DNA of 64,000 bases from an uncultured Candidatus Saccharimonas sp. Its GTDB lineage: Bacteria > Patescibacteriota > Saccharimonadia > Saccharimonadales > AQU-01. The notes under the pieces were generated by a model, which was given only the letters and a program-made list of their open reading frames with translations, searched no databases and had not been told where the DNA came from. The stretch covers positions 6,169 through 70,168 of the forward strand of contig CALRGT010000003.1 of assembly GCA_943358095.1 (NCBI GenBank), written 5' to 3'. The translations under genes were made by a program, and so were the position numbers. Below, one piece after another: positions 31,987-63,370 of this stretch. The first letter of the stretch is position 1, and each line of letters begins with the position of its first letter.

Positions 31987-32041
31987 ATAATTAATCATCA
32001 CTTACTGTTATAATTAGACAGTAAAGAAAGTGAGGGTAATT

Positions 32042-32422
32042 ATGAAGTTTATTAAGCCAGTTTATGCACATTGTGATTTGCCTTGTGGGGTTTACGATCC
32101 TGCTCAAGCTCGAATCGAAGCAGAGTCTTGCCATATGATAATGACAAAATATGCAGATTTGCACAGCGAAGAAGACAAATGGCGAGCAGTATTTATCAAA
32201 GAAGAGCGTGCCGACATGGTCAAGAACCATCTATGGGTGTTGTGGACCGATTATTTTAAGCCTGAACATCTAGCTAAGTTTCCTGATTTGCACGATTTAT
32301 TTTGGCGAGCTACAAAGCAAGCTGGCAGCGTCAAGAAGTCTGTCGACCCGGCCGAAGGTCAAAAGTTGCTAGACCTAATTGCTGAGATTACTGATATTTT
32401 TCAACAACCCAAAAAAGCTTAA
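32042..32422 (+). CDS. sodN: nickel-dependent superoxide dismutase precursor
   Basis: Leader MKFIKPVYA followed by the Ni-hook HCDLPCGVYDP. SD GAGGG upstream of ATG 32042. Confidence 0.9.
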   Translation: MKFIKPVYAHCDLPCGVYDPAQARIEAESCHMIMTKYADLHSEEDKWRAVFIKEERADMVKNHLWVLWTDYFKPEHLAKFPDLHDLFWRATKQAGSVKKSVDPAEGQKLLDLIAEITDIFQQPKKA

Positions 32423-36906: not shown

Positions 36907-39528
36907 TTAATTTGATGTGTATTGTCTGTGCAGATAGGTGCCGTATGTTTTGTCGCCTCTACATAGTTTTACTGTTTTACATACAGCGCCGTCGTACTTA
37001 GAGTAGGTTAAGAAGGTAGAGAACTTACTGCCTAGTTCTGCGCCAGTTACATTCTCAGCCATCTCTCTTATAGGATATCCAATGTAGTGCTTGAGAGGTA
37101 TCTTGAGAATGTTGGCATAGTGCTGGTTCATATAAGCTTCGTAGCTTCTATCTACAAATTTTGAAGTGTAAATGTGATCGCTGTGATCGGGTATTATTGT
37201 GCCATTATAATCACTCAAAGTATTTATAAATGATGGGTGATAAGTGGCCATTATCTCCAGCAAGGAATCAGTCAAATTTTGAGTGCTATAAGTTGAGTCG
37301 CCATACAAAGCTTTAATGCTTGGTATTGAATCATTATAAAGCTTCTCTATACTTTCATTATTTGTGATTTTAAATCCGCCTCCTCTCAAATTACCATCAG
37401 GTAAGTGCATGTAAAGTAAAAGTATTTTATCGTTCCCTACAGGATTAGATGCAGTTATATAATGCCCGTTATCAAGCTCTACAGTACGATCAACCCAGAA
37501 ATTGTCTATTCCAGCCATTTTGGAATATGCGGCCTCTGAGCCTCTCTCTCTTCTTAGCCAATAGAAACTATTATTACCACCATCACCTGTTGTTAGGTAT
37601 ACAGTACGTACACACAATCCAGCAGTGATATATTTTTGGATATCAGGGTTCATAAATAATATATCATCATCTTGGTGAGCGACTATATTTAGAACGCTCG
37701 CTTTAGTACAAGAAGTATTGGTGAGATTTTTCATCTTTGTTGGTACGACAGCCAAAGTAGTTTGCTTACTTATATTATTAGCTATCGCTCTGTCGCGGTC
37801 TGAGTAGTCGTAGAACAATAAGAGTTCTTTTGGATTTTTGACGGTACCCGAAACTACAATGCTGCTGTTTGGTTCGCCGTATTTTGATATGACGGTGTTG
37901 ATGCTACATCCAGGAAAGTCAGTTTGACCCTTTTCTACAGAAAGCAGGTATGCAAAACTGCTGGTTTTTAAGTCCATCTGCCATTCGCTACTTGTTAGTA
38001 CGTTTTTATAGGTTGTACAGTCGCTAAGTGGCAGCACCCTTACTTTGCCTTTAGAGACTTGTTTGATCGGTAATACTCGCCAATAATCCCCTATCAATAC
38101 GCTAACTGGCTGAGCATTAAGAATTTGTGATATGACTGAATTACGAAATGTGAATTCGTCGTTAGATGACGACTCTAGTCGATTGTAGTTGTAGATAGCA
38201 GGCATGCTTATAAAACTGAGCAATGCAATAGAATAGCCGGCTATAACTAACTTTTCTGAAGATATATTAAATTTGCGTAAATATGTGGTGCCGGCTATGA
38301 AAATTGTAAATAATGCGATGCTAAGATATCTCGCGTCGCCAGCGTAATAATGATTAGTCACTACGAATGCTCCTAATGCCGCAACAGTAGACCAGATCAT
38401 TGCTACAGACAATGTATTGTTGATGTCGGCGCCAAAATCTCCATGCTTTCTTAGACTATTTTTGATAATCATAAACACCGCCACAATACCCACAATAAAT
38501 AACGCGAAGTTTATTAATAATGCAGGTCCAGAGTATGAAAGTATATTTGCTAAAGCGTGTTTAGGAAATTGGCTTAAAATATTTGTGTCGTAGGCAAAGT
38601 TAGCTCCAAAGTTCACTAGAAGGCCACTAACTCCATATGCGATGCCGAGAATTAATTGATGTAGGCTTGACGCTAGATTGTACGTATTAGTTGATTGTGA
38701 CGAAAAATTTACTACACCAATAGTACTAACTAATCCTAGTATTGAGTATGATCCTGCTGCTCCTGCTAATACCCCAAGCACCCATCTGGCTGATGTCGTT
38801 ACTAGATTCCACCTTCGACTAAGCGCGTATACGAATAGCGCTATCAGTGCGCCGCCTAAAGATATATTAAAGAACAATGCGTCAGATGCTATGAGTACGC
38901 TCAGGCCAATTACTCCTACCAGGAAGAGCCTATGCTTGATTTTTGGAGAACGTAGCAGCGCCAAGATACTGGCTATATATAAGACATATTCTATATTTCT
39001 GGTAGTGGCCATGCCCATATTGACTGGCAATAAAGCTCCAGCATAGGGCTGAGCAGGTATTTGTAGAAGTACTGAAGCTAGAGCTAAAAAAATAGTTCCA
39101 ATTACTAAAGGTCGCTTTTCGATTTTGTAGAGTATTTTGCAAAAAAACAAAACGGTTGCTAGGGCCAGTATGATTGTTGCGACCTGATAACTTCTGGCTG
39201 TGTCGCCAAAAAGATGAATTACATAAAATACTGGCCATTTCAAAAACTGAGAATGTTGTCCAGGTAGTGTTGAGTTTCCGAAGCTCGTAGAAGATTCGTA
39301 TAGGTATGGGTTTACTAATTGGTCGGCGTTGTTGCTATGCACTCTTGCGCTAAGGCCTGCCCAAATGACTGTGCTTATTATAAGAAATATGACCGACCCT
39401 ATAAGATAATTTCTCTGATATTTTTTGTCGTTAACCATCTTCTCAAAGATGTTTACACGTGATTGCTTGTGATTATTGATGATAGTACGTTTGTTGTTTT
39501 TGTTAGGTTTACTCATAGATTCAATCAT
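36907..39528 (-). CDS. fusion protein: polytopic membrane domain (GT-C/ArnT-like topology) + C-terminal PIG-L/LmbE family deacetylase
   Basis: 873 aa. About 13 hydrophobic helices in the N-terminal 450 aa. The C-terminal domain has VAHQDDDILFMNPD (the AHPDDE-type PIG-L motif). Confidence 0.7.
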   Translation of the reverse strand: MIESMSKPNKNNKRTIINNHKQSRVNIFEKMVNDKKYQRNYLIGSVIFLIISTVIWAGLSARVHSNNADQLVNPYLYESSTSFGNSTLPGQHSQFLKWPVFYVIHLFGDTARSYQVATIILALATVLFFCKILYKIEKRPLVIGTIFLALASVLLQIPAQPYAGALLPVNMGMATTRNIEYVLYIASILALLRSPKIKHRLFLVGVIGLSVLIASDALFFNISLGGALIALFVYALSRRWNLVTTSARWVLGVLAGAAGSYSILGLVSTIGVVNFSSQSTNTYNLASSLHQLILGIAYGVSGLLVNFGANFAYDTNILSQFPKHALANILSYSGPALLINFALFIVGIVAVFMIIKNSLRKHGDFGADINNTLSVAMIWSTVAALGAFVVTNHYYAGDARYLSIALFTIFIAGTTYLRKFNISSEKLVIAGYSIALLSFISMPAIYNYNRLESSSNDEFTFRNSVISQILNAQPVSVLIGDYWRVLPIKQVSKGKVRVLPLSDCTTYKNVLTSSEWQMDLKTSSFAYLLSVEKGQTDFPGCSINTVISKYGEPNSSIVVSGTVKNPKELLLFYDYSDRDRAIANNISKQTTLAVVPTKMKNLTNTSCTKASVLNIVAHQDDDILFMNPDIQKYITAGLCVRTVYLTTGDGGNNSFYWLRRERGSEAAYSKMAGIDNFWVDRTVELDNGHYITASNPVGNDKILLLYMHLPDGNLRGGGFKITNNESIEKLYNDSIPSIKALYGDSTYSTQNLTDSLLEIMATYHPSFINTLSDYNGTIIPDHSDHIYTSKFVDRSYEAYMNQHYANILKIPLKHYIGYPIREMAENVTGAELGSKFSTFLTYSKYDGAVCKTVKLCRGDKTYGTYLHRQYTSN

Positions 39529-41711: not shown

Positions 41712-43115
41712 CTAATTAACTGTGTAGTTAGAGGCGCTTAGCTCATTTTGAGTTTGATTCCATCTTAGACGTTCTAGAATCATATTATATGTTCGTTGGT
41801 TTGATGGCTTGGTTGTTTTGTTGGATGTTTGGACGCCTATTACACTAAATTTAAACTTGAAGGGTAATAGCCCAAGATTGCTTGTTTTAATTTGATCAAA
41901 ACAATCATCGTGAAAGGAAGCACATCTTTCTCCCAAGCTAACCCATGACTGTAGCATAGTTTCTGTTTCCGGGCTTTGATCAATACTCATTGTTAAGCTT
42001 ATAGCTGCTGAACGAGTTACTTCCTCGCTGAACTGCTGGTCAAATATAAAGTTACCCATAGAGTAGGCGATTAATTTTCCTTTATACACTTCTGTTGGCT
42101 GCACCCAATGTGGATGATTGCCGAGCACTATATCTGCACCATAATCTATCATCTTATGGTACAGAGCCTGTCTCTCTGCGTCTACAACAGAACTGTATTC
42201 AACACCCATATGAGGCATGACAATAACTGGCATATATTTTGCATATAATTTGATAGGCTCTAGGTCCTTGTCTTTTATTTTGTAATTCACGCCAGCAAAA
42301 CCACACATTGCTACTGGGATTTTTACTTCCTTCTGTGTGTCATCCAGGCGCACCCTAGCAGGAATCGCTATGACCTCGCAAGCATCGGTGCTTATACTCG
42401 GATCAAAATGTCCAAAATATTGAATTGCGTAATCGTCCAGTGCTTTTCTAGTTGCGAGTAGTCCTTCTTCGTCTTTGTAGTTATTGGTGTGGTTGTTAGC
42501 GAGCGAGAACACATTGAACCATTTAGATGCCTCTGAAAGATACGATACAGGGCAGTTAAATATCAATTTCTCTTTCTCATCTTTAATTGATGCTTGCACT
42601 CCTGGAACTGAAGGACATTCAAGGTTAGCTACCCACGCATCGTAGCTGTCTTTTTTGAACTCGCCTAAATGTCTAAAGGGGTAGGCTTCTTTTAATGAGG
42701 TTTCTTGCGCCCACTTGTTTAGATTCCGTCCCCAGTAAACGTCGCCCGCAAATAGAACTCTACTTTCTAGAATTGTTGATTCCGGAAGTTTGGTCGAGTA
42801 GTCCTCCATCCGAATGGCATGACTACGTAGAGAAATGTTTACAGCAAGTCCAAGGCCAATCATGGCCAGCACCACCATACAGAGTATATTTTTGCGTTCA
42901 TCTTCTGTATATCGTTTATTGTAGCGTGCTCTACTTTTCTTTGCTTTGAACTTCAATAGAATAATTTTATTTCGCTTAATCTTATTAGCATTACGAATTA
43001 CTTTACGAATTCGATTAATGCGAAACTTCAATACCTTTAATCTTCTCTTAATAAGTCTTCGAGATTTTTTCGTAAGAAGTGCCATATTAATTACTTTCCT
43101 TTTCAGGATGCCCAA
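41712..43115 (-). CDS. capA: CapA/PgsA family poly-gamma-glutamate synthesis protein (metallophosphatase fold) with highly basic N-terminal extension
   Basis: VANLECP, SLANNHTN, LGNHPHW and YSMGNFIFDQ motifs. About 70 aa Lys/Arg-rich N-terminus, then a TM. Confidence 0.85.
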   Translation of the reverse strand: MGILKRKVINMALLTKKSRRLIKRRLKVLKFRINRIRKVIRNANKIKRNKIILLKFKAKKSRARYNKRYTEDERKNILCMVVLAMIGLGLAVNISLRSHAIRMEDYSTKLPESTILESRVLFAGDVYWGRNLNKWAQETSLKEAYPFRHLGEFKKDSYDAWVANLECPSVPGVQASIKDEKEKLIFNCPVSYLSEASKWFNVFSLANNHTNNYKDEEGLLATRKALDDYAIQYFGHFDPSISTDACEVIAIPARVRLDDTQKEVKIPVAMCGFAGVNYKIKDKDLEPIKLYAKYMPVIVMPHMGVEYSSVVDAERQALYHKMIDYGADIVLGNHPHWVQPTEVYKGKLIAYSMGNFIFDQQFSEEVTRSAAISLTMSIDQSPETETMLQSWVSLGERCASFHDDCFDQIKTSNLGLLPFKFKFSVIGVQTSNKTTKPSNQRTYNMILERLRWNQTQNELSASNYTVN

Positions 43116-43770
43116 AACCTAGAAATCCGTAATTCTGTACAAATGAAAAATTCCGGTATTTCACTCCACCATTCAAATTGCCGCCAATCATACCGGCTCT
43201 TCCGATTTCATCGCCAACGTCTACGACAATATCTACGTGCCCAAGATTATCTTCATAATCGCCGCGCCAGAATATAACAAAATCACCAATTTCTGGCTGA
43301 AGTCCTTTCTGTGTTATCTCTGCGCTGTCGTGCCACGTACCATGTTCCTTTAGATATTCTGTGAACTTACGAGAATTTGTTATTCGCCAATTTTGAGTTA
43401 AATTATCTGCTACTGGCGATCCTGCCTTCATAGTAACCCAGCTCGCAAACATGGTGCACCATTGTGAATGATAACCCTGCGTGTACATGTCGACCTGGGG
43501 TCCGCTATTAGATCCCATAGGAGATTCAAGGACGTTTTTTCTGAACTCCTGCATAGCAATATCAGCCCGTTTTATGCCATAAAATTCTTTTGGTTTTACT
43601 TCAGCCTTGGCTGTCTCTAATAATTGTTTTTGGATTTTTATTTCTGGCTGCGCTGCGACGTCAAAAAATAGGTCCTTGTAGCCAAAGTATGTATAGAACG
43701 TAACTGTAAACAAGACTAATCCAATTCGCACAAAGACTCTTTTATTAATGAAATTAAATTTAATGCGCAT
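43087..43770 (-). CDS. CHAP domain amidase/peptidase
   Basis: N-terminal TM. Catalytic Cys context QWCTMFASWV and His context LGHVDIVV. Confidence 0.7.
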   Translation of the reverse strand: MRIKFNFINKRVFVRIGLVLFTVTFYTYFGYKDLFFDVAAQPEIKIQKQLLETAKAEVKPKEFYGIKRADIAMQEFRKNVLESPMGSNSGPQVDMYTQGYHSQWCTMFASWVTMKAGSPVADNLTQNWRITNSRKFTEYLKEHGTWHDSAEITQKGLQPEIGDFVIFWRGDYEDNLGHVDIVVDVGDEIGRAGMIGGNLNGGVKYRNFSFVQNYGFLGFGHPEKESN

Positions 43771-44977
43771 GATTTTTCTCTAAGAATTTTAATAGCGCTT
43801 GAGATTGCTTGGTGTGGATATTAACAGACCCTAATAGCAAAAACTCGTCCTCTACAATAGCTTTTGATATAACTTTAAGAAGCTTTGTTCCTGCTAGTTC
43901 TGAGTGCATGCTCTCGTTCCCCATACTTACAACCACGACATTCTTGTTTTTACGTTTGCGAGTTAATTTTGCAACTTCCTTAATGACATTTTTTTCATAA
44001 TCACCGAATGCGAAGATATAGTCAGCGCCAATTGATTTGACTGCAATATTCGCAAATTGTGATACTCGATCAGGTCTATCGTGCCTATTGTTTAGAATTA
44101 CGGCTCTGATAGTCTTGTCGCCTACTTTAGTGCGCAAGGCTTTAGACGTCATTATGAAACTTTCTGAATCGTTAATAGCAAAAAGATTTGCCCAATGTAT
44201 AGTCTTTTTGTGTTTAATTATTTTCTTTAGCGCAAAGGCACCAGGATCAGGTTGTGCTTTATGCATGCCATTTAGAGCCGTGCTTCGCTTTATGCCAGTT
44301 AGTTGCGCTACTTTTATTGCTATAGCGACATTCGACTTATACTCAAAGTGATCAAACATAGACATTTGTTTATCGCCAATTCTCATACTCCCTACGGCAT
44401 GAAATTTTGTATTACGTCTCTTGCACTCTTTACGAAGAATCGTAAGAAGTTTAGGGTTTGTTTCCGCTGTAATTAAATGGCCATTTTTGGGTATAGTTGC
44501 ACATAGACTTCTGGCAATTTCCGGCAAGGTTTGCCCAAGCATATCCATATGATCTTCTCTAATATTCGTAATGACACCAATAGTTGAGTGCATGATTTTT
44601 TCTTCAAGATACTTCTGGTATATCGGGTTAATTGCCATGCATTCAAAAACAATAGCTCTGTATCCTTGGCCTTTGTACATGTCTATAATTTGTTTTTGTT
44701 CTGCAATATCTGCTTCTGTTCTCGGTATTTCCATATCTTTGCGATGTCCTATTACTAGGCGGGCAGCTGAGCCAGTAGTTTTACCAAGAGTATTGATTCC
44801 ACCCTCTCTTAGCGAGGCTGCAATTAATCGGGTAACCGTAGACTTACCGCGAATGCCGTTAACGTGAATTCGATGTTCAAACTCTTTTAAAACTAAGTGC
44901 GAATGCTTACGCTCTATTAGAACGCTGTTCGTAATATATATTGCAAATAATATGGCAATTACAATCGGAATATACAT
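43760..44977 (-). CDS. capB: poly-gamma-glutamate synthase CapB/PgsB (Mur ligase family)
   Basis: HVNGIRGKSTVTRLIAA, ECMAINP, NIREDHMDMLG, PDPGAF and NNRHDRPDRVSQFA closely follow recalled B. subtilis PgsB. Confidence 0.9.
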   Translation of the reverse strand: MYIPIVIAILFAIYITNSVLIERKHSHLVLKEFEHRIHVNGIRGKSTVTRLIAASLREGGINTLGKTTGSAARLVIGHRKDMEIPRTEADIAEQKQIIDMYKGQGYRAIVFECMAINPIYQKYLEEKIMHSTIGVITNIREDHMDMLGQTLPEIARSLCATIPKNGHLITAETNPKLLTILRKECKRRNTKFHAVGSMRIGDKQMSMFDHFEYKSNVAIAIKVAQLTGIKRSTALNGMHKAQPDPGAFALKKIIKHKKTIHWANLFAINDSESFIMTSKALRTKVGDKTIRAVILNNRHDRPDRVSQFANIAVKSIGADYIFAFGDYEKNVIKEVAKLTRKRKNKNVVVVSMGNESMHSELAGTKLLKVISKAIVEDEFLLLGSVNIHTKQSQALLKFLEKNHAH

Positions 44978-44979
44978 GA

Positions 44980-45942
44980 CTACACCGCCAATCTTGCTAT
45001 GTATGCTAATAGAAGGGAAGGAAACACGCCTTTAATCAGAGATTCACGGACAGGCTGCAAACAAAGCTCGTTCGTTAATACGGCGACAGCAATAATGGCA
45101 ATAGTCGGTGATGGATGATATTTATTCATGTGTACAGCTAGAGCGGTATAATCTAGTATAGAAATCGTCAGATAGCCCATAACTAGACTGGCTACAAACC
45201 TTTCCAGCCCAATAATCAGCGTGTATTTTTGGATAAGTTTCATAGCCCAGAAACTAATTACTACGGCTATGGATATGCACATCGCTTGCAGTGGCGCGAT
45301 AAATATTAGAAGAGCAAGAAATGGACCGATCACATATCCACCACCACGAATACCGAAGCGATAATAGATCAAGGCTGCAGTAATTAAACTTATAGGTATC
45401 ACAATAAATGGAGCAGTCAATGTTAGCGGTGTGTATTGAGCCAATTGAACGTTTAATGAGGTGAGGTCATGTTTTGGAATCACAGACGCCAATATCACAC
45501 CTGCCGACCCAGTTAGCGCAGTAACAAGTAATGTTGAAGTAATAATTCGCGACTTGCCATATTTATGAGCGCTAATAGTAATAAGTCCTGGTATGACAAG
45601 ACTAACGATTGAAGATTCTATATAAGCATTTCCGTAAGTTCTAAAAACGTACATCGTGATAAGTCCAAGAAGTGTAGATATGGACATGCAGATAATGGTA
45701 ATCCAACGACTACTAAGTGCGTGCTTGGACACAAATATGCGATAAATAGTCCAGCATATAACAGTAGAAATAAGTAAAACAATAAAGGATTTAAAGCTGA
45801 CGAATAACGTTCCTGCCAAGATTCCAGGTACGATAATACCGCCTGGTGTTACCCCATACTTTTTTTTATAAAGTATTGAGATAATTGCTCCCAGTAGAAA
45901 TAGAATGCGAATAAGTTCGATCGAACTGTCTAATATCTCCAC
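44980..45942 (-). CDS. capC: CapC/PgsC-like membrane protein, apparently duplicated (about twice the usual length)
   Basis: 320 aa. GVTPGGIIVPGILAG and SLVIPGLIT resemble PgsC GIVPAGLVVPGYLA / GIIVPGLIAN. Its stop lies 2 nt before the capB start. Confidence 0.7.
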   Translation of the reverse strand: MEILDSSIELIRILFLLGAIISILYKKKYGVTPGGIIVPGILAGTLFVSFKSFIVLLISTVICWTIYRIFVSKHALSSRWITIICMSISTLLGLITMYVFRTYGNAYIESSIVSLVIPGLITISAHKYGKSRIITSTLLVTALTGSAGVILASVIPKHDLTSLNVQLAQYTPLTLTAPFIVIPISLITAALIYYRFGIRGGGYVIGPFLALLIFIAPLQAMCISIAVVISFWAMKLIQKYTLIIGLERFVASLVMGYLTISILDYTALAVHMNKYHPSPTIAIIAVAVLTNELCLQPVRESLIKGVFPSLLLAYIARLAV

Positions 45943-47436: not shown

Positions 47437-48003
47437 ATGGCAATTGAAACACCGAAGTATAAAGTTTTAGAAAAAAATGGGCATATTGAGCTAAGAAAAT
47501 ATGACGGCTATATAACAGCAAATGTAGAAATTAAAGCCGATAGCTATAAATCTGCCGGCAGTATGGCATTTAGAGTTTTGGCCGATTATATATTTGGGAA
47601 TAATACGAAAAATACAAAGATAGCTATGACTGCTCCTGTAATTAGCCAAAAACCTGCTACTTCAGAAAAGATAGCAATGACTGCTCCTGTAACTACGGCT
47701 AAACTTGACGATCAAAAGTACGTTATTTCATTTACAATGCCAGCAAGTTTTACGTTAAAGGATTTACCTAAGCCCAATAATGACAATGTAATTATTAAAA
47801 GTTTGCCTGCGCACGAAGTAGTTGCTATTGAATTTTCGGGGTACACATCAGAAGGTGATATTGAGAAGAAGTCCGCTGAACTCAGGGAGTGGGCTAATAA
47901 AAAACAAATTAAGCTAGCCAATCAGCCGTCTGTACTAAGATATGATCCACCATGGAAGCCAGGATTTATACGACGAAACGAAGTCTGTTTTAGTGTCGTC
48001 TAG
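47437..48003 (+). CDS. SOUL heme-binding family protein
   Basis: IETPKYKVLEK...IELRKY N-terminus, repeated IAMTAPV motif, C-terminal YDPPW....RRNEV. Confidence 0.85.
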   Translation: MAIETPKYKVLEKNGHIELRKYDGYITANVEIKADSYKSAGSMAFRVLADYIFGNNTKNTKIAMTAPVISQKPATSEKIAMTAPVTTAKLDDQKYVISFTMPASFTLKDLPKPNNDNVIIKSLPAHEVVAIEFSGYTSEGDIEKKSAELREWANKKQIKLANQPSVLRYDPPWKPGFIRRNEVCFSVV

Positions 48004-48028
48004 ATTAGTATGCCGCTGTGCTCGTGGA

Positions 48029-48433
48029 TTATCTATTTAAATAAGTAATCCCAAGCTGCACGGTGGTCGCGAATGCGCCCCAAACAAGATAAGGGATATT
48101 TGCATAGCTGACCCATCTGAGTTCGGGAGCTTTTAGCCAAACTGCTAAGAGTGCCCATATAAGTGTGGCTACTATGAGTAATATATCTATAGACGCAAGT
48201 AAATTATTCGCCAAACCGAATTGTATGTATGTAAAGGCAAAGTTGAAAATAAGATTAAGAGCAAAGGGCAAAGCAACCACCCTCGGAATTAGCTTTTTAT
48301 ATGCACTGTAAAAAACCACACTATAGGAAACTGCAATTATCACATACAAAAACGGCCATACGAGACCGATTACCCACGACGGTGGTGTCCATGACGGCTT
48401 AATGTACTGTGAGTATAGTGCTCTTCCATCCAT
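48029..48433 (-). CDS. tspO: TspO/MBR tryptophan-rich sensory protein
   Basis: 134 aa, 5 TM. KPSWTPPSWVIGLVWPFLY and the aromatic-rich C-terminus are typical of TspO. Confidence 0.85.
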   Translation of the reverse strand: MDGRALYSQYIKPSWTPPSWVIGLVWPFLYVIIAVSYSVVFYSAYKKLIPRVVALPFALNLIFNFAFTYIQFGLANNLLASIDILLIVATLIWALLAVWLKAPELRWVSYANIPYLVWGAFATTVQLGITYLNR

Positions 48434-49402: not shown

Positions 49403-49494
49403 AAAATATAAAGAGTGTAGCGAGGGTTCTAGCCCAATGACCTACCGGCAACCTACTAATTAATAGCAAGGTGCTCCATCTAGTCCGTAGTTAT
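49403..49494 (+). promoter_or_regulatory. SAM-I-type riboswitch aptamer upstream of metK
   Basis: The conserved core is readable: AAGAG-tgtagc-GAGGG-ttct-AGCCC-aatGA-cctaCCGGCAACC-...-GGTGCT. The P4 region looks short. Confidence 0.75.
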
Positions 49495-49495
49495 T

Positions 49496-50668
49496 ATGGA
49501 AACGATATTTTGCCAAAACATATCCTTTCCATATATTCACGGGGAAGGATATTTTATTTCAAACTCTACAAAAACAACACTATTTACTAGTGAATCAGTT
49601 GCCGCAGGGCATCCAGACAAAATCTGTGACGCCATAAGTGATGCAATTCTTGACGCAGCCTTAGCGCAAGATCCAAAAACGAGAGCCGGTATTGAGGCGG
49701 TTGCTGGCGCAAATCAGATCAGCCTATTTGGTGAAATTACCACTACCGCCAAACTAGACTATGAGGCGATTGTTCGAGAAGTTATTAAATCTCAAGGTTA
49801 CATTGAGCCAAAGTGGGGCTTTTCTGAAGAGTCAAAGTTCACAAGTTATTTACATCAACAATCGCCAGAGATATCGCAGGGCGTTGACCAAGATGGGGCT
49901 GGCGATCAAGGAATGATGTTTGGTTATGCCTGTAACGAAACCCCAGAACTTATGCCGATGCCGATTACTTTGGCACATGCTTTAGCGCGTAGAATCGACG
50001 AAGTCCGTCAGAAAAAAATACTCGATTATATCCGACCCGACGGCAAGGCGCAGGTTACTGTCGTCTACGAAGATGGCATACCTACTGCTATAGCTAACGC
50101 CGTTATTGCAGTAGCACATTCCGAGCAAGTTAGCGCCGATCAAGTTCGTGCTGGAGTTATTGCTGAGATTATTACCCCAGTTTTAGCTAAATATGGCTTC
50201 ACAGTGAGCGACGAAAATATAACTGTAAATGGCACAGGCTTATGGCATATACCAGGTCCAGAATCAGACGCAGGATTAACTGGTAGAAAAATTGTAGTAG
50301 ATACATATGGTGGTTACGCTCGTGTTGGAGGAGGCGCCTTTAGCGGTAAAGATCCGAGCAAGGTGGACCGTTCTGGCGCTTATGCGGCACGATATATTGC
50401 TAAAAATATTGTTGCTGCCGGTCTAGCGGATAAATGTGAGGTTGGTCTGGCATATGTAATTGGTAAGCCGAATCCTTTAATGCAAACAATTGAAACATTT
50501 GGAACTAGTAAAGTTTCTGACAAAGAACTTTACGACTTCAAAGATAAATTGATAGATACTTCGGTACGAGGAATAGTCGAAAAATTGCAGCTACTTAGGC
50601 CGATTTATTCTGCGACAAGCGCATATGGACATTTTGGTAAGCCAGAATTGCCGTGGGAGCAGGGGTAG
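49496..50668 (+). CDS. metK: S-adenosylmethionine synthetase
   Basis: LFTSESVAAGHPDKICD, GAGDQGMMFGYA and GGGAFSGKDPSKVDRS motifs. The ORF-track ATG 49496 lies inside the riboswitch platform. The conserved N-terminus is better served by ATT at 49556 (see findings). Confidence 0.95.
   Translation: METIFCQNISFPYIHGEGYFISNSTKTTLFTSESVAAGHPDKICDAISDAILDAALAQDPKTRAGIEAVAGANQISLFGEITTTAKLDYEAIVREVIKSQGYIEPKWGFSEESKFTSYLHQQSPEISQGVDQDGAGDQGMMFGYACNETPELMPMPITLAHALARRIDEVRQKKILDYIRPDGKAQVTVVYEDGIPTAIANAVIAVAHSEQVSADQVRAGVIAEIITPVLAKYGFTVSDENITVNGTGLWHIPGPESDAGLTGRKIVVDTYGGYARVGGGAFSGKDPSKVDRSGAYAARYIAKNIVAAGLADKCEVGLAYVIGKPNPLMQTIETFGTSKVSDKELYDFKDKLIDTSVRGIVEKLQLLRPIYSATSAYGHFGKPELPWEQG
49520..49559 (+). 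terminator. riboswitch expression-platform hairpin (terminator/SD sequestrator)
   Basis: 11-bp stem ATATCCTTTCC / GGGAAGGATAT followed by TTTTATTT. The 3' arm contains the GGAAGGA Shine-Dalgarno. Confidence 0.7.
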
Positions 50669-55436: not shown

Positions 55437-56021
55437 ATGATCGAACTTCGACCGAAAAGATTTATGATGGACAAAGACAAAGATGTTGCAGAACGACTAC
55501 GCGACGGCGACAATGACGATTTTTTTGCAAATATCAGACATGGCAACCAAGATATGCCGTGGGGCGGAACTATCGAAAAGGCTGGCGAATTATTTGTTGC
55601 AAAAGGCAATAGTCCTAGACTACCTAGAATCCGAGATGCTTTTAGTGCGGGGGTATCGGTAGCGGTTGAAAGTTTTTTTGAATCTGAAGTTCCTGTATCG
55701 TTAAGGCCAGCAGTACTTGATGTTTTTAGCGAGACTCCATTGCCACGCAAATTACGAAATGGTTCTTCTAGTGCGATATTGGATAATTTTATCGAACTTG
55801 CATATATCGGCTACAATCTTCATCCAGAACTAAATGAAGTCGCCATAAGAACCCGAGATTATTACATTCAAATAGACGAAGAAGCGAAATTGGGTCACCC
55901 CGCATTCTTGGGTATTGGTTTAGGTGCATATTTAATAGATGATGCTTACGAGAGCGCACTTGATAATAAGGTGAACGCTGTGATGAAGGCCGAAAATTGG
56001 CCAATTGACTTGATAGGCTAA
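55437..56021 (+). CDS. hypothetical protein, paralog 1 of a three-gene tandem family
   Basis: Shares VAVESFFESEVPV, GYNLHPE and AYLIDDAYE blocks with the next ORF. Confidence 0.6.
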   Translation: MIELRPKRFMMDKDKDVAERLRDGDNDDFFANIRHGNQDMPWGGTIEKAGELFVAKGNSPRLPRIRDAFSAGVSVAVESFFESEVPVSLRPAVLDVFSETPLPRKLRNGSSSAILDNFIELAYIGYNLHPELNEVAIRTRDYYIQIDEEAKLGHPAFLGIGLGAYLIDDAYESALDNKVNAVMKAENWPIDLIG

Positions 56022-56090
56022 ACGTCGCGACGATCTAAAAACAAAAATAGTGTTGCTTATTAGTTGGTTTGAGCTTAAAAATAGGTATAA

Positions 56091-56708
56091 ATGGAATCAC
56101 ATCTACCAGAAAAATTTAAGTTAGATAGTAACGGCAGAGTGTTGGATTATCTTAGGCATAAAGACCACAATAGCGGCCTAGATATGATGAGACAGCGCTA
56201 CGCAGGGTTGCCATTAATGGCTCCGGCGGTTGCTGCTAGTCGTAATTACGCACCGGTTAATGAAAGAATAAGTTCGGCATTTTTAAGACATGGTTTTGTT
56301 ACTGGAGCTTCTGTAGCGATTGAGTCTTTTTATCAATCCGATGTTCCGGTAGATATAAAAATTTCTCTAGCGGAAGAACTTATAAAAAGTAAGGTAGCTA
56401 ACGATTCCAAAAGTAGGCGGTCTAATGATGTGCTGCGAAATTTTTATGACTTAGCATCAAAAGGAATAAACTTACACCCAGAAGCCGTAGAATTAGTCGA
56501 TTTAACCGAGAGGCACTTTGAGGATCGCGGTCCCGTGGAAGAAATGGGCACTGCCGCTTTCTGTGGAGCCGGTATGACTATTTTGTGGGTCGATGAGGCC
56601 TACGACAGGGTTATTGATGGTCAATTTGATGCAATAAAGCCTGAGATTGATTGGGATTCTAAGTCCTGGGGTCCTGGTTGGAATACTCCATATCCTCCAA
56701 AAGCCTAA
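56091..56708 (+). CDS. hypothetical protein, paralog 2 of a three-gene tandem family
   Basis: VAIESFYQSDVPV, GINLHPE, ILWVDEAYD, C-terminal IDWD. Confidence 0.6.
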   Translation: MESHLPEKFKLDSNGRVLDYLRHKDHNSGLDMMRQRYAGLPLMAPAVAASRNYAPVNERISSAFLRHGFVTGASVAIESFYQSDVPVDIKISLAEELIKSKVANDSKSRRSNDVLRNFYDLASKGINLHPEAVELVDLTERHFEDRGPVEEMGTAAFCGAGMTILWVDEAYDRVIDGQFDAIKPEIDWDSKSWGPGWNTPYPPKA

Positions 56709-56774
56709 AAGCATATCTATATAATATTAAGTTAAAGCTTGCAAATTATCTGTTTTTCGCTTAAGGTATATGAT

Positions 56775-57407
56775 ATGTACGAATATAACGCACCTATATT
56801 GCGGCTAGATAGCACTGAAGAAATAGCAGCACGAATTCAAGAAGATGTTTTATTGGCGACGTGGGATTTCCATAATACCTATATTCCAAGAAGCCAAGGT
56901 AAGCATATTGTTGAAGTTGCAAATTCTCTGTTTATAGACCGACGCTCAGATTTAGACTTATATCGTGGCCAAGCTTTCTGTACGGGGGCTGCGGTAATGT
57001 TGGCGGCATTAGACTCGACAGTTATTGATCCTGAAATACATATCGAAACAATGAATCAGTTTACCTCACAACCTATGCCATACAGAAAAGATACTAGGCA
57101 TCAAAAGAAGATTGATTTAGTCGATAAGATGGCTGGGCTGGGGCACGTTCTTCACCCTGAAATGACGGTAGCAACAGAAGCAGTAGCTCAAGATTTTCTA
57201 AACAAAACTATGGAAATGTCAGTTGAAGATGCTGTGCGAAGCGGTACTGGCTACACTCTTTGGAGAGCTCATCGTTCATGGCAAGAGGCTCGTAGAATTA
57301 TTGCGGCAAAAAATGGCACTACACACGAAAACGAGGAAGCTCAGTTAAGTTCAGAAGTTGCCAGGTTAACCGTAGATCTCGATTGGGATGATTTGTTAAA
57401 AGGCTAA
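56775..57407 (+). CDS. hypothetical protein, divergent paralog 3 of the tandem family
   Basis: In-frame ATG with SD AAGG. GHVLHPE block, GTGYTLWRAH and C-terminal LDWDD align with paralogs 1-2. Confidence 0.55.
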   Translation: MYEYNAPILRLDSTEEIAARIQEDVLLATWDFHNTYIPRSQGKHIVEVANSLFIDRRSDLDLYRGQAFCTGAAVMLAALDSTVIDPEIHIETMNQFTSQPMPYRKDTRHQKKIDLVDKMAGLGHVLHPEMTVATEAVAQDFLNKTMEMSVEDAVRSGTGYTLWRAHRSWQEARRIIAAKNGTTHENEEAQLSSEVARLTVDLDWDDLLKG

Positions 57408-57883: not shown

Positions 57884-58231
57884 CTAGGATTCTTTATCAA
57901 ATCTTATATAGTCCAGCTCTCTTGGAGTTAGTCCACCCCAGATTCCATCTTGTTGAACTGTGTCGATTGCGTAATTTTTGCAATCTATTCGTACATCACA
58001 TTGGTTGCAAATATATTTGGCGGCTCTTTCTCGGGTAATTCTTTGAGAGTTAGTCTCTACTTTTATTATTAACGGTTTGGAAGTTTGTGGCGTTTCATTT
58101 TCTGGAATGGAAAGTTCTGTGTAGGCGACTTTTGAATAAAATAATTCTGTTTGTCCCTTACAACTGGCGTACTTAACCCAAGACCTACCAGGCCCTTCGC
58201 GGTAATAATCAAGTATCGAGTCCTCTCTCAT
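57884..58231 (-). CDS. WhiB-like (Wbl) iron-sulfur transcription factor
   Basis: Cys pattern C-x(n)-CNQC-x5-C followed by GIWGGLTPRE. Start taken at MRED (a GTG at 58255 is also possible). Confidence 0.75.
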   Translation of the reverse strand: MREDSILDYYREGPGRSWVKYASCKGQTELFYSKVAYTELSIPENETPQTSKPLIIKVETNSQRITRERAAKYICNQCDVRIDCKNYAIDTVQQDGIWGGLTPRELDYIRFDKES

Positions 58232-58279
58232 CCAATAGATGGTATCACTAATCACCAGATTCTAGTATGGATAGATTTG

Positions 58280-58579
58280 CTATCTAATTCTTATTCGACC
58301 TTTGACTGGTGAGGGGAAGCCCCTGCGTAGTCGTTCGAGTTCATTAAGTCCAGCCCAGATGCCGTATTCTTCGTTCTTTGATGACTGTTCTAGGCATTGC
58401 TCTATTACAGGACAGCTGGCGCACATATTCCTTGCGATAGTCTCGCGGCGTTCTCTCGCTTTTGAGCTTTCGTTGTAAGGTGAATAAAACTTATCAGTCA
58501 TACCACGACAAGCTGCCTGGCCTATCCAGCCTTGCACAGCATCAGGATTATTTAGTTTTTCTTCAATTTTCTCTCTCAT
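58280..58579 (-). CDS. WhiB-like (Wbl) iron-sulfur transcription factor
   Basis: AACRG...CASCPVIEQC...GIWAGLNELER. Start at MREK (58579) is supported by a TTGCAC-17-TATAAT promoter 9 nt upstream. Confidence 0.8.
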   Translation of the reverse strand: MREKIEEKLNNPDAVQGWIGQAACRGMTDKFYSPYNESSKARERRETIARNMCASCPVIEQCLEQSSKNEEYGIWAGLNELERLRRGFPSPVKGRIRIR

Positions 58580-58588
58580 CGGATAATA

Positions 58589-58624
58589 ATTATAAAACAA
58601 TAAAGTAATTCGTGCAATATTGCA
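58589..58624 (-). promoter_or_regulatory. near-consensus promoter with overlapping 12-bp palindrome upstream of the WhiB-like pair
   Basis: Minus strand has TTGCAC, a 17-nt spacer, then TATAAT. The perfect palindrome TGCAATATTGCA (58613-58624) overlaps the -35 box. The ATG lies 9 nt after the -10 box. Confidence 0.6.
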
Positions 58625-58687
58625 TGGCACGGCCCATAAACAACAGAGGGCTACTAATTTACAAGTAAACATGGTATAATAGTATTA

Positions 58688-59173
58688 ATGAATGATTTTT
58701 CTAAATTCGAACGTGATTTGGCTTTTGATGCCGATAGTTATGCTGAGTCATACGACATGCAACGGCAGGCTACGCGTGAGCACCTCTCTAGTCTTATGGT
58801 GCAGGGTTATTTAAGTACTAATGTTATTCCTAGCGGATCTTTAGTGGAGGTAGAGCTAGCATCTAGAAGCGTAGCTTATGATCCAGATGAGAAATTGCGG
58901 AGAATAATTGGAACTATGGCTGGTGACGGTAGCTTGAAAGTGATCGGTGATAGTTCTGATGGTAGACAGCTCATAGGGCAGAGAATAGTCATGGGGAACT
59001 GGAAGATAGCAGACGAGGCAAATAACGATATAGTTTATACTCCAGGTACTGTTAATCCTGATGCAAACCTAGGCTATCATAATTATTGGGACGGCGAAGT
59101 TAGCGCGACAGATCTAGGTAGTCCGCCTGCTTCATTTACGGTTGATGGCATCCCTTTTATCTTTGAAAAGTAG
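58688..59173 (+). CDS. hypothetical protein
   Basis: 161-aa ORF divergent from the WhiB-like genes. No family recognised. Confidence 0.5.
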   Translation: MNDFSKFERDLAFDADSYAESYDMQRQATREHLSSLMVQGYLSTNVIPSGSLVEVELASRSVAYDPDEKLRRIIGTMAGDGSLKVIGDSSDGRQLIGQRIVMGNWKIADEANNDIVYTPGTVNPDANLGYHNYWDGEVSATDLGSPPASFTVDGIPFIFEK

Positions 59174-59243
59174 TATTCCTCTACTTCAGATTAATCTCAG
59201 GAAGTAGTATATAATTAGTAGCACCAGTAATAAGGAGTTTTTT

Positions 59244-59501
59244 ATGAGGAATTACGGTCAGTTCGAAAGAGTAGTTACTCAGCAACCTATGCACGATCCG
59301 CGTCAAGGTACGTGTTTATTGATGCTCGCAGTCTTCCTGCTAGTTGCAACGCTTGCTATGTATCTTGTTTATAGAATATTTTCAGAGTCAAAGTGGGCTT
59401 ATCGTTTCCAGGATCCGATTGATATTGCTGAAGCTAGATTCGCTAATGGCGACATAACTAAAGCGCAACTTTCAGATATTCGTAAAGAACTAGAACAGTA
59501 A
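59244..59501 (+). CDS. small membrane protein with C-terminal SHOCT-like domain
   Basis: One TM, then IAEARFANGDITKAQLSDIRKELEQ, resembling the SHOCT motif. Confidence 0.6.
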   Translation: MRNYGQFERVVTQQPMHDPRQGTCLLMLAVFLLVATLAMYLVYRIFSESKWAYRFQDPIDIAEARFANGDITKAQLSDIRKELEQ

Positions 59502-59547
59502 ACTATTGGTTTGCTCATATAAAATTATTTAATCGCTATGATTGCAA

Positions 59548-60375
59548 TTAATGCAGTTGTAGCGATTTTATAATTTCAATAGCTAGTTTGTAGGCATTAC
59601 TTTTAATAATATAATCGACTGGAACTGTATTAATTGCCATATCGTCTTTTAGTTCCTTTGATGAGTAGCCGCCCGATACAATAAAGGTTTCTGGTTCTTT
59701 GCCGTAATCTGGTCCAAGTGTATCACCAACTTTTAGTTGAAAGTTGCCAGCGACGAAAAAATAAGCAAAATTGTCGGCAGTATCGAGTCCAAAATTTGTT
59801 ACTAGTGTATCGGCTCTTTGCCCAACAGCAGGTTTTTTGTAAATTGTTTTAATGGATTCCTGAATCGCCACTCCTCGACCAATATATTTCCTGTCAGCAG
59901 CTCTAGCTCCCTTTCTGATATATATTCTAAAGTTACCGCTTACTGGATCACCATCTAAATTTTTATAATTAAATACTGGCGATTCTATCCTAGTGCCGTT
60001 GTCAGAAGTTTCTGTCGCAGTCCAGTCTGACGGATATGTTAGGGTTAGACCCATAGGTCCGTTTTCGTATTCTTTAGTTGTTGTAGTGTTAGGTAGGTCA
60101 GCAACTTCAACTTTTTGTTCCGATTTTTTCTCTATATTTGTAGTAGTTTTGGCGGCCGGATTTTTATGTGTAAAAAGCTTCACAGCGCCAATTATTAGAC
60201 CGGCGAAAATGCCCAGTGCAAGCAGTAACATAATTAGTTTTTTAGATTTTTTGGATTTTCGTGATCCGTTACGACGCACGGCCTTATTGTTTTCTTCGTC
60301 GATTTCGACGGACTGATTATACGGATCATTAATCTGCATATAGATTATTATGCTACTAAACTCGTATATATTCAA
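59548..60375 (-). CDS. hypothetical membrane-anchored extracytoplasmic protein
   Basis: Basic stretch + single TM + ~200-aa soluble domain. No family recognised. Confidence 0.55.
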   Translation of the reverse strand: MNIYEFSSIIIYMQINDPYNQSVEIDEENNKAVRRNGSRKSKKSKKLIMLLLALGIFAGLIIGAVKLFTHKNPAAKTTTNIEKKSEQKVEVADLPNTTTTKEYENGPMGLTLTYPSDWTATETSDNGTRIESPVFNYKNLDGDPVSGNFRIYIRKGARAADRKYIGRGVAIQESIKTIYKKPAVGQRADTLVTNFGLDTADNFAYFFVAGNFQLKVGDTLGPDYGKEPETFIVSGGYSSKELKDDMAINTVPVDYIIKSNAYKLAIEIIKSLQLH

Positions 60376-62087: not shown

Positions 62088-62513
62088 TTATGTTGAAGAA
62101 GCGCAATCTTGACAGAGTCCTCTGATTTCCAGTTGATGGTCTGTCATAGTTAGGCCCTGGCTCTTAGCGAGTAAGGATATGCTAGCTTCAAGGTCGGAAT
62201 TGTCCTGCAGAGTTATGATTAGCCCGCATTTCATACAGCTAAAGTGGTGGTGATGGTGTGTGAAGGCGTCGCTTAGCTCTATCTTATATTTCCAACCTAA
62301 AGCTAGTCGCTGTGTAATGCCAAGGCTTTCGAATAGTCCTACCGTACGATAGACGCTGGCACGGTCTACAGATTTACCAAGCAAGTTTATTAACTCGTTC
62401 ATGGTTTGTGGTTTGTGACTACTAAGCACTTCAAAGACTAATTTTCGTGGGTTAGTAAGGCTTTGGCCCTTATTTTTAAGCACTTCTGATAATTTTTTGA
62501 GTTCAGGATTCAT
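62088..62513 (-). CDS. Fur family metalloregulator (Zur-like)
   Basis: Winged-helix N-domain (RASVYRTVGLFESLGI), HHHHF and CxxC...CxxC motifs. Divergent from a ZIP transporter. Confidence 0.85.
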   Translation of the reverse strand: MNPELKKLSEVLKNKGQSLTNPRKLVFEVLSSHKPQTMNELINLLGKSVDRASVYRTVGLFESLGITQRLALGWKYKIELSDAFTHHHHHFSCMKCGLIITLQDNSDLEASISLLAKSQGLTMTDHQLEIRGLCQDCASST

Positions 62514-62514
62514 A

Positions 62515-62537
62515 TCGCAACAATAGCATTATTGCGA
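62515..62537. promoter_or_regulatory. candidate Zur/Fur operator (imperfect 23-bp palindrome)
   Basis: TCGCAACAATAGCATTATTGCGA in the 74-bp divergent intergenic region. The arms TCGCAA / TTGCGA are perfect. Confidence 0.5.
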
Positions 62538-62587
62538 CATAATTGCAATAACTGGTTGTTTCCTCTAAGATATCTACTAAGCAACTA

Positions 62588-63370
62588 ATGAAAGGTAACT
62601 ATATGGCTACATATTGGCACGTAATATTTTATTCGATGATCGGTGGTGTTTTTTCTTTACTGGGTGGCATATTACTTCTTAGCAGACAAAAAAGTGCCGA
62701 AGTTTTAGCAAGATACGCTACTCCATTTGCGGCTGGAGCTCTCTTGTCAGCAGTATTTCTTGATCTATTAACTGACGGGCTCGAAGTTTCAAGCCCAGAA
62801 TCAGTCATGTGGTCGGTACTTGTAGGTATCTCTATTTTCTTCTTCCTAGAAAGATTTTTAAGATGGTTTCATCATCATCATGCCCACGCAGGTGATGTAA
62901 TAAGCCACAGAGTAGGAATGATAGTAATCGGCGACACGCTGCATAATGCCCTAGACGGTGTCGCCATTGCCGCAAGCTTCCTAATAAGCGTGCCAACCGG
63001 TATCGTTACAACTATTGCGGTTGCCGCTCATGAAATACCCCAGGAAGTTGGTGATTTTGGTTTGTTACTTGCAAGAGGCATGAGTCGCAGAGCCGTTTTG
63101 ATTGTGAATTTCTTTAGCGCACTGGCCACGGTACTTCTTGCCGTTATTACATTTGCGCTTGGAAGTGAGCAGAGATTACCAATCGGGATACTAATTGGAC
63201 TAAGCGCTGGATTCTTACTATATATTGCAATGAGCGACCTAATACCTGGTATACATGAGAGTTCGCCTAAAAAGAAATTGTTTGACTGGCGTCCAGTAAT
63301 GTTCGTCTTGGGCATTGTTACTGTCGCGGTCTCAATACAGATAGCTCATAGACTTACGCTCGTCGGTTAA
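62588..63370 (+). CDS. ZIP family zinc transporter (ZupT-like)
   Basis: 8 TM. His-rich loop WFHHHHAH and HNALDGVAIA / HEIPQEVGDF signature helices. Confidence 0.9.
   Translation: MKGNYMATYWHVIFYSMIGGVFSLLGGILLLSRQKSAEVLARYATPFAAGALLSAVFLDLLTDGLEVSSPESVMWSVLVGISIFFFLERFLRWFHHHHAHAGDVISHRVGMIVIGDTLHNALDGVAIAASFLISVPTGIVTTIAVAAHEIPQEVGDFGLLLARGMSRRAVLIVNFFSALATVLLAVITFALGSEQRLPIGILIGLSAGFLLYIAMSDLIPGIHESSPKKKLFDWRPVMFVLGIVTVAVSIQIAHRLTLVG

Follow-up and report, generated by a model that had tools for sequence, protein, structure and literature searches.

Members of the family of WhiB-like (Wbl) proteins (Pfam PF02467, InterPro IPR034768) are described in reviews up to 2026 as exclusive to Actinobacteria and actinophages, and freshwater virome studies assign hosts by whiB as an 'actinoviral hallmark'. 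In WhiB1 of Mycobacterium tuberculosis an aromatic patch, AP1-4 (W3, F17, F18 and W60), mediates binding to the primary sigma factor's region 4 (sigmaA4) (PMC13013590). According to a study of 2026 the patch binds all seven M. tuberculosis Wbls and the phage Wbls tested to His516-Pro517 of SigA region 4, and its positions are found in 98.7% of the Wbls surveyed (PMC13013590). Here we describe two adjacent genes, encoding the proteins Wbl1 and Wbl2, within a 64-kb stretch of the contig CALRGT010000003.1 (the whole stretch is referred to as the window). Both are genuine WhiB-like proteins, encoded in the chromosome of a freshwater bacterium of the Saccharimonadales (TM7; candidate phyla radiation, CPR), where they are resident and selectively maintained. 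An earlier interpretation from the letters of the DNA (the sequence-only reading) had remarked that Wbl proteins are generally regarded as confined to Actinobacteria and their phages. The literature still says so, and the present host, in the family UBA10212, lies outside that range; the restriction is a distributional criterion, not a molecular one, and does not exclude the two proteins from the family.

Motifs and fold of the two proteins

The genes are co-directional, both on the minus strand, within 57.88-58.67 kb of the window (Table 1). Wbl1 and Wbl2 score 53.8 and 57.2 bits respectively against PF02467, more than twice the gathering score of 23.6, and both also match WhiB families in PHROG, while no NCBIfam model matches either. 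Two adjacent Wbl genes had been claimed by the sequence-only reading, with failure of a formal search with the PF02467 hidden Markov model (HMM) named as a possible refutation; the open reading frames (ORFs) are found and the search supports the claim. A six-frame scan with the HMM and a regular expression gave exactly two Wbl genes in the window, with no third.

The cysteine motif of Wbl1 is C24-x50-C75-x2-C78-x5-C84, followed by the turn G96-I-W-G-G100, and that of Wbl2 is C24-x28-C53-x2-C56-x5-C62, followed by G73-I-W-A-G77, as the sequence-only reading had discerned in outline for both proteins. None of the four Cys columns varies in alignments A1 and A5. The GIWAG turn of Wbl2 is kept in the orthologs P0002 and P0003, and P0001 has GIWGG. 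At the level of sequence the aromatic patch is complete in both proteins, comprising a Trp six residues before Cys1, F-Y at +7/+8 and the Trp of the turn. When the two are aligned with Streptomyces WhiB and with WhiB1 and WhiB3 of M. tuberculosis, invariance is confined to the columns Trp (AP1), Cys1, Phe (AP2), Cys2-4 and G-W-G. These are the cluster ligands, the aromatic patch and the beta-turn, in agreement with the motifs of PMC13013590. The C-terminal tail is basic in Wbl2 (KGRIRIR) and not in Wbl1 (RFDKES), so that of the basic tail ascribed earlier to both proteins only that of Wbl2 stands.

All significant matches in a sequence search of the PDB are Wbl proteins, for Wbl1 and Wbl2 alike. 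Wbl2 matches WhiB3 with 58.5 bits, Streptomyces venezuelae WhiB with 35.7 and WhiB1 with 29.4, while Wbl1 is about equally distant from WhiB1 (34.1 bits), WhiB (33.2) and WhiB3 (30.7). The AlphaFold2 (AF2) model of Wbl1 has a predicted local distance difference test (pLDDT) score of 75.8 overall and ~90 in the core. The top nine PDB matches of this model in Foldseek are all Wbl proteins (WhiB3, WhiB1 and S. venezuelae WhiB), with template modelling (TM) scores normalized to the target of 0.67-0.83. The best of these are the sigmaA4-bound forms of WhiB3 and WhiB1, with target TM of 0.80-0.83 and a root-mean-square deviation (rmsd) of 2.0-2.1 Å to 6onu/6ono. Wbl1 is thus predicted to adopt the four-helix Wbl fold around a cluster pocket.

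Comparison with described Wbl proteins

The closest solved structure to Wbl2 is WhiB3 (M. tuberculosis Rv3416)/WhiD, with 46% identity over ~80 residues. They share the Cys spacing (x28-29, x2, x5), the G-[VI]-W-x-G turn, the N-terminal Trp six residues before Cys1 and the FF/FY after Cys1; R42 in the Arg-rich loop is also common to both, and in both the C-terminal tail is basic. The differences lie in that loop, where R38 is replaced by Ser and R40 by Lys (S38-S-K40-A-R42 in Wbl2; motif from PMC10245118), in the N-terminal Trp pair (W15/W17), of which Wbl2 has one, and in the turn, which is GIWAG in place of GVWGG; the host is moreover a Saccharibacterium. Since the invariant R38 and one Trp are missing, Wbl2 appears from its sequence to be WhiB3-like overall but to fall outside the WhiB3/WhiD subclass.

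The PDB sequences closest to Wbl1 are WhiB1 of M. tuberculosis and WhiB/WhiB2 of S. venezuelae, and sigmaA4-bound WhiB1 gives the best superposition of the Wbl1 model (target TM 0.82-0.83, with the rmsd given above). Wbl1 shares with these proteins its four Cys, its GIWGG turn and its aromatic patch. Wbl1 differs in an acidic or neutral C-terminus and in an insert that is absent from 314 other retrieved Wbls. Both proteins are members of a known family found in an unexpected phylum, and Wbl1 is a loop-insert variant.

Actinophage WhiB proteins (e.g. those of Actinomycetia phage DSL-LC01 and Thermobifida phage P1312) are among the nearest to both in BLAST and HMM searches, with 42-50% identity to Wbl2 and 31-44% to Wbl1, and share with them a low or medium GC content and a freshwater habitat. 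Unlike these, the Wbl genes of the window are chromosomal: housekeeping genes lie on either side, and phage genes are absent from the vicinity. Assignment as a phage-borne Wbl or prophage gene was rejected, as four neighbouring genes lack a PHROG match and IMG/VR holds no close match.

A neighbour-joining tree on ~70 columns is weakly resolved and places neither protein in a named subfamily. The M. tuberculosis references in the tree serve as labels only; the subfamily comparison rests on the bit scores to solved structures, not on the tree.

Gene starts and the insert in Wbl1

The ATG start of Wbl1 at 58231 (115 aa) is the one chosen by the gene callers in L001 and L083-L088, and not the GTG at 58255. 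For Wbl2 the longest ORF (130 aa, 58280-58672) carries a hydrophobic N-terminal extension of 31 residues, and the sequence-only reading had let the second gene run to 58672. In the sister strain L083 this extension contains two in-frame stops, while the internal ATG and the upstream TATAAT are conserved; the segment TTGTTTTATAAT..TTATCCGATG is kept in L083 inside an otherwise ~73% identical block. Gene calling gives the ortholog P0003 a length of 99 aa. For these reasons the product is likely to be of 99 aa (58280-58579), and the earlier gene was over-extended. That the extension might be a signal peptide was rejected on the same grounds. The Wbl2 mRNA is possibly nearly leaderless. P0049 has the look of an intermediate ortholog but is the P0003 allele carrying a frameshift. 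Terminator prediction gave none in the spacer between Wbl2 and Wbl1.

The spacing of Cys1 and Cys2 is 28-29 in 296 of the 316 Wbl proteins retrieved. The typical value of 28 is found in Wbl2, and the largest outside the Wbl1 family is 34; spacings of 50 or 53 occur only within that family, with 50 in Wbl1 itself. The unusually long insert noted in the sequence-only reading therefore exists, although it is of ~22-25 residues instead of ~45. Polar and acidic in composition, it differs in length between alleles (alignments A1 and A3). It sits in the loop between helices h1 and h2, where WhiB3 contacts DNA, and replaces the Arg-rich loop. Residues 38-50 have pLDDT <50 in the AF2 model, and the insert is predicted to be a disordered loop. 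This adds to the family a natural variant with a long loop at the point where WhiB3 touches DNA.

Table 1. Coordinates of the features of the Wbl locus, numbered from the first nucleotide of the window
Feature	Position	Strand	Remarks
Wbl1 CDS (coding sequence)	57884..58231	-	115 aa + stop; PF02467 53.8 bits
Wbl1 alternative GTG start	58255	-	would yield 123 aa
Wbl1 Cys codons	C24 58160-58162, C75 58007-58009, C78 57998-58000, C84 57980-57982	-	
Wbl1 GIWGG turn	57932-57946	-	
Wbl1 lineage-specific insert	58061..58132	-	~residues 34-57; loop between Cys1/helix h1 and helix h2
Wbl2 CDS	58280..58579	-	99 aa + stop; PF02467 57.2 bits
Wbl2 Cys codons	C24 58508-58510, C53 58421-58423, C56 58412-58414, C62 58394-58396	-	
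Wbl2 GIWAG turn	58349-58363	-	
Wbl2 ORF, upstream in-frame extension	58580..58672	-	probably untranslated
-10-like TATAAT, conserved	58589-58594	-	9 nt upstream of Wbl2 ATG
Wbl2-Wbl1 intergenic spacer	58232..58279	-	48 nt; edge of divergent block falls here
Promoter-like site TAGATA-16-TAGAAT	58259-58286	-	Wbl2-Wbl1 spacer
Divergent block	58230..59700		72-83% nt identity; flanks 97-100% (sliding window vs L083, L084)

A resident locus under purifying selection

The leucyl-tRNA synthetase (LeuRS) of the window is 98% and 97% identical to those of 'Candidatus Saccharimonas sp. RH-23may17-197' and of a Saccharibacteria metagenome-assembled genome (MAG) from ELA, and 55-80% identical to those of many other Saccharibacteria, with no actinobacterium among the best 80 loci of the LeuRS search. 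RH-23may17-197 is placed in Patescibacteria; Saccharimonadia; Saccharimonadales; family UBA10212, with a GC content of 41.6% and an estimated size of ~1.1 Mb (PMC9166423 supplement). The host is thus a freshwater bacterium of this family, of monoderm type, and the impression that the genome is not actinobacterial-looking was correct. The window is chromosomal and carries LeuRS, LigA, TypA, MetK, RNase III, NusB, TrmD, S16 and eight tRNAs. Housekeeping genes are contiguous with the locus on both sides, with TypA, CorA and MetK upstream and SIMPL, Fur and ZIP genes downstream. Next to the Wbl pair lie a Nudix gene, two small hypothetical genes and three further hypothetical genes that are distant paralogs, besides genes for a membrane protein and the SIMPL protein.

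The GC content, the GC content at third codon positions (GC3) and the codon-usage likelihood of both Wbl genes lie within |z| <=1.3 of 61 genes of the window, and the GC profile is flat along it. No match was found in a PHROG scan of four neighbouring genes, there are no mobility genes in 54-63 kb, and neither an integrase nor a tRNA flanks the locus, the nearest tRNA (48.5 kb) not being adjacent. Furthermore, at least eight independent assemblies (ENA, Logan) from several samples show synteny at this locus. It had been placed in an accessory island, with the proposal that its composition be compared with that of the rest of the genome; the comparison reveals no deviation, both genes lying within ~1.3 standard deviations of the window genes, and together with the neighbours, the flanks and the synteny it speaks against an island. 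The pair had also been called duplicated. Wbl1 and Wbl2 are only 29% identical, and either differs from its partner as much as it does from actinobacterial Wbls, so there is no recent tandem duplication; the sequences point to old paralogs or separate acquisitions.

A strain represented by the contigs L083 and L084 is 97-100% identical to the window on either side of a divergent block (Table 1). The block, of ~1.5 kb with ~75% identity, spans Wbl2, a divergently transcribed gene of 161 aa (58688-59173), a gene of 85 aa (59244-59501) and part of a gene of 275 aa, encoding a membrane protein, at its end. Identity falls sharply at ~58230 and rises again gradually by ~60500, and Wbl1 lies outside the block. 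Synonymous divergence (dS) is ~1.0 within the block, compared with 0.014 in Wbl1. The ratio of nonsynonymous to synonymous divergence (dN/dS) is 0.155 for Wbl2; the 161-aa gene has a value of 0.16 and the 85-aa gene one of 0.08. Every Cys and aromatic residue of Wbl2 is kept at dS ~1. The dN/dS of 0.155 shows that Wbl2 is maintained by purifying selection. Since gene order is kept, dS is ~1 and dN/dS is low, the block bears the signature of homologous import, in which a set of alleles came by exchange from a related but more distant lineage with the same gene order. The Wbl pair is thus shown to comprise resident, selectively maintained chromosomal genes.

Relatives and origin

A profile of the Saccharibacterial Wbls searched against 1.84 billion cluster representatives gave 31,531 Wbl matches, yet only the two clusters of this lineage itself reach E<=1e-30, the next score being 96 bits. 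Outside the lineage the best identity among these representatives is 50% for Wbl2 and 41% for Wbl1, and word-indexed protein searches with the single proteins returned only same-lineage clusters. In INPHARED there is no close relative, the best identity being 47% (Wbl2) and 44% (Wbl1), and in IMG/VR there is no close match to either.

The nearest relatives outside the lineage with a readable context fall into three groups. The first comprises freshwater phage-like contigs with GC of 0.35-0.46, some of which are of 47-135 kb and encode class II ribonucleotide reductase (RNR), Fpg and DUF3039; compared with known phages they give one partial match, to Actinomycetia phage DSL-LC01. Two of the loci on large contigs of this kind, L172 and L173 (7907-8232, 10001-10240), carry two different Wbl genes ~2 kb apart; these contigs are of 47-135 kb (the longest of the cluster being 139 kb) with GC ~0.45, and have class II RNR, Fpg, DUF3039 and ferredoxin nearby. 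The second group comprises high-GC contigs (GC 0.69-0.71), taken as actinobacterial, together with proteins of named Actinomycetota, Ilumatobacteraceae and Acidimicrobiia MAGs; the only taxonomic names among the cluster members are of Actinomycetota. The third comprises low-GC (0.39) cellular contigs that are non-actinobacterial by the similarity of their DnaE, UvrB and enolase to solved structures. Among these, L176/L181, L182 and L183 share the synteny SpoU-PilB-Wbl-malic enzyme, L183 being without the SpoU end, and may be Patescibacteria; L180 is another low-GC, non-actinobacterial contig with a Wbl gene. The C-terminal tail of the Wbls in the syntenic contigs, P-x-x-N-x-R/K-x-F, is like that of Wbl2. 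Their PilB proteins are 87-93% identical, compared with 41-46% for the syntenic Wbls, and therefore the Wbls evolve very fast in these low-GC lineages. A metagenome scan with the Wbl alignment gave mostly high-GC contigs among the matches listed; six low-GC loci among them bear only a generic resemblance to the window, in TypA (L130 and L157) and an M48 peptidase (L144).

The genome tables of Southlakia epibionticum, a cultured Saccharibacterium whose complete genome is annotated by sequence and structure, list no WhiB, so that Wbl is not universal in Saccharibacteria. From this, and because the nearest outsiders, at <=50% identity, belong to freshwater Actinomycetota or to phage-like contigs, the sequence comparisons lean towards an acquisition long ago from actinobacteria or actinophages, with rapid divergence thereafter; the native composition rules out a recent transfer.

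It is unlikely that the genes were instead inherited vertically, with Wbl already present before Actinobacteria and Patescibacteria parted within Terrabacteria, and later lost from the majority of CPR lineages. The fully native composition would suit such a history, and so would the retention of Wbl in the SpoU-PilB-Wbl-malic enzyme synteny by a second low-GC non-actinobacterial clade, and in L180, where fast evolution would hide old orthology. But many independent losses would be needed, the complete, structure-annotated Southlakia genome has no WhiB, and the other low-GC contigs are placed only tentatively. Nor do Wbl1 and Wbl2 group together, each being about as close to actinobacterial and phage Wbls as to anything, and no paper in the open-access literature ties WhiB to Saccharibacteria or CPR genomes.

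Proposed function

By analogy with the described proteins, and on account of the conserved residues and fold, both Wbls are likely to be [4Fe-4S] proteins of the cytoplasm which dock on their own cell's primary sigma factor at region 4 and tune promoters upon damage to the cluster by O2, nitric oxide (NO) or redox stress. Each monomer would hold its [4Fe-4S] cluster on the four Cys. The holo-protein would then dock through the aromatic patch (W18, F31, Y32 and the GIWxG Trp) onto the His-Pro pair that ends region 4. A motif ...LRHPSR is widely conserved in primary sigma factors, also outside Actinobacteria. Docking would alter promoter use, with the basic C-terminal tail of Wbl2 perhaps adding non-specific contacts to DNA. 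Loss of the cluster to O2, NO or redox stress would free the sigma factor, so that the pair may act as redox- or oxidant-responsive switches.

A number of points weigh against this proposal. There is no sigma-70 motif or gene in the window or in 180 retrieved loci, and no Fe-S assembly genes are found in the window. Wbl2 has S38 in place of the invariant R38 of the WhiB3 loop, and one N-terminal Trp rather than two, while the insert of Wbl1 could change the binding of partners. Moreover, with Wbls evolving so fast, the lack of close relatives proves neither a narrow distribution nor a particular origin.

The only match of the sigma-70 search is not a primary sigma factor. On the contig L020 of a distant Saccharibacteria MAG the gene after leuS (4514-5554, plus strand) encodes 346 aa, with an N-terminal region-4-like helix-turn-helix domain (...TRERVRQIENHALNKIRQSD...) ending ...NKIRQSD, and then an unrelated domain.

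The Wbl fold might serve a function independent of sigma, such as that of a thiol-disulfide oxidoreductase or of a DNA-binding protein in the apo-form, as in some mycobacterial WhiBs. Garg et al., in a paper of 2007 cited by PMC12369343, are said to have described a protein disulfide reductase activity of WhiB1, which would count in its favour. Apo-WhiB1 binds DNA through C-terminal basic residues (PMC10245118), and a basic tail is present in Wbl2; the unusual loop of Wbl1, in a protein lacking such a tail, could also be taken in this sense. All four positions of the aromatic patch, which sigma binding requires, are however intact in both proteins, and one and the same site on sigma is bound by all seven Wbls of M. 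tuberculosis and by the phage Wbls examined (PMC13013590). A sigma-independent role is improbable.

Alternatively the proteins could be effectors, delivered into an actinobacterial host to capture region 4 of the host SigA and reprogram transcription as actinophages do. PMC10633639 and PMC9166423 describe cultivated Saccharibacteria as epibionts of Actinobacteria, and phage Wbls bind SigA4 in a His516-dependent manner (PMC13013590). The nearest relatives include Wbls of phage-like freshwater contigs, and Wbl2 lies in a recombination-variable block, as do many host-interaction genes; were the proteins effectors, the strain-variable block around Wbl2 would be an adaptation to different hosts. 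Such delivery is very improbable. The conserved forms have neither a signal peptide nor a hydrophobic segment (maximum 15-aa Kyte-Doolittle value 0.3-0.6), the hydrophobic extension of the long Wbl2 ORF is broken by stops in the sister strain, and no secretion-system genes are adjacent. The dN/dS of Wbl2 (0.16) indicates purifying and not diversifying selection, and an oxygen-labile Fe-S protein is poorly suited to secretion. Free-living Saccharimonadia cells have also been reported in lakes (PMC9166423).

A milder reading, to which we give somewhat better than even chances, is that Wbls are established, fast-evolving regulators in some Saccharimonadia and other low-GC non-actinobacterial lineages, where they would work with a CPR sigma-70. 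It is much more likely than delivery to a host, and if true it would overturn the 'Actinobacteria-only' rule.

Recent horizontal transfer, a prophage remnant or an assembly chimera, in which foreign actinophage or actinobacterial DNA was inserted or mis-joined, is scarcely credible and largely refuted. In its favour are the otherwise actinobacterial or phage-borne distribution of the family, the mostly hypothetical genes around the pair, which match nothing in Pfam, PHROG or NCBIfam, and the strong divergence between strains of the block with Wbl2. Against it, the GC, GC3 and codon usage are indistinguishable from those of the 61 window genes under a flat GC profile, independent assemblies from several samples have the genes in the same order, and housekeeping genes run contiguously on either flank. 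Neither INPHARED (<=47%) nor IMG/VR holds a close relative, and the block, with gene order kept, dS ~1 and low dN/dS, points to homologous exchange with a related lineage and not to foreign insertion.

The Saccharibacterial proteins show that the Wbl family also functions in a CPR genome, in which it is native and selectively maintained, and other low-GC non-actinobacterial contigs probably carry Wbls too. The presence of whiB alone is therefore unsafe as a taxonomic marker. The pair probably records in concrete form a flow of genes between the lineages of epibionts and their hosts, cultivated relatives living on Actinobacteria, and allows the Wbl-sigma interface to be tested with a non-actinobacterial sigma-70.

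Other genes in the window

Directly upstream of the Nudix-Wbl1-Wbl2 group, three tandem genes (55437-57407, plus strand) encode 194, 205 and 222 aa. They are the distant paralogs mentioned above, with 21-26% identity, and are conserved in sister strains. None has a Pfam match, and the one of them that was compared with NCBIfam and PHROG has no match there. On the other side of the locus a Fur-family regulator and a ZIP metal transporter are encoded at 62088-63370.

A nickel superoxide dismutase (Ni-SOD) gene lies at 32030-32422 on the plus strand (PF09055, 143 bits). This type of enzyme is best known from Streptomyces and marine cyanobacteria, and the gene may be a further one of actinobacterial type in this genome. 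A heliorhodopsin gene (26731-27510, minus strand; PF18761, 273 bits) is also present in this Saccharibacterial chromosome; heliorhodopsins have been reported in freshwater CPR, with which the gene agrees. The host lives in oxic lake water, and the Ni-SOD and heliorhodopsin genes are in the same window as the Wbl pair.

A SAM-I riboswitch (49403-49511, plus strand; 57.9 bits) is located directly upstream of metK (49496-50668), and at 47437-48433 the gene for a SOUL haem-binding protein adjoins one for a TspO/MBR tryptophan-rich sensory protein. A cluster of poly-gamma-glutamate capsule type (41712-45942, minus strand) comprises PGA_cap/CapA, a CHAP-domain protein, a Mur-ligase-like CapB and CapC. 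Further along the minus strand, at 36907-39528, is the gene for a protein of 873 aa, in which the sole recognisable domain is a C-terminal PIG-L (GlcNAc-PI de-N-acetylase/MshB-like). Among the loci retrieved for comparison, L005 is labelled 'Burkholderiaceae bacterium'; its LeuRS is 80% identical to that of the window, and it is probably a mis-binned Saccharibacterial contig.

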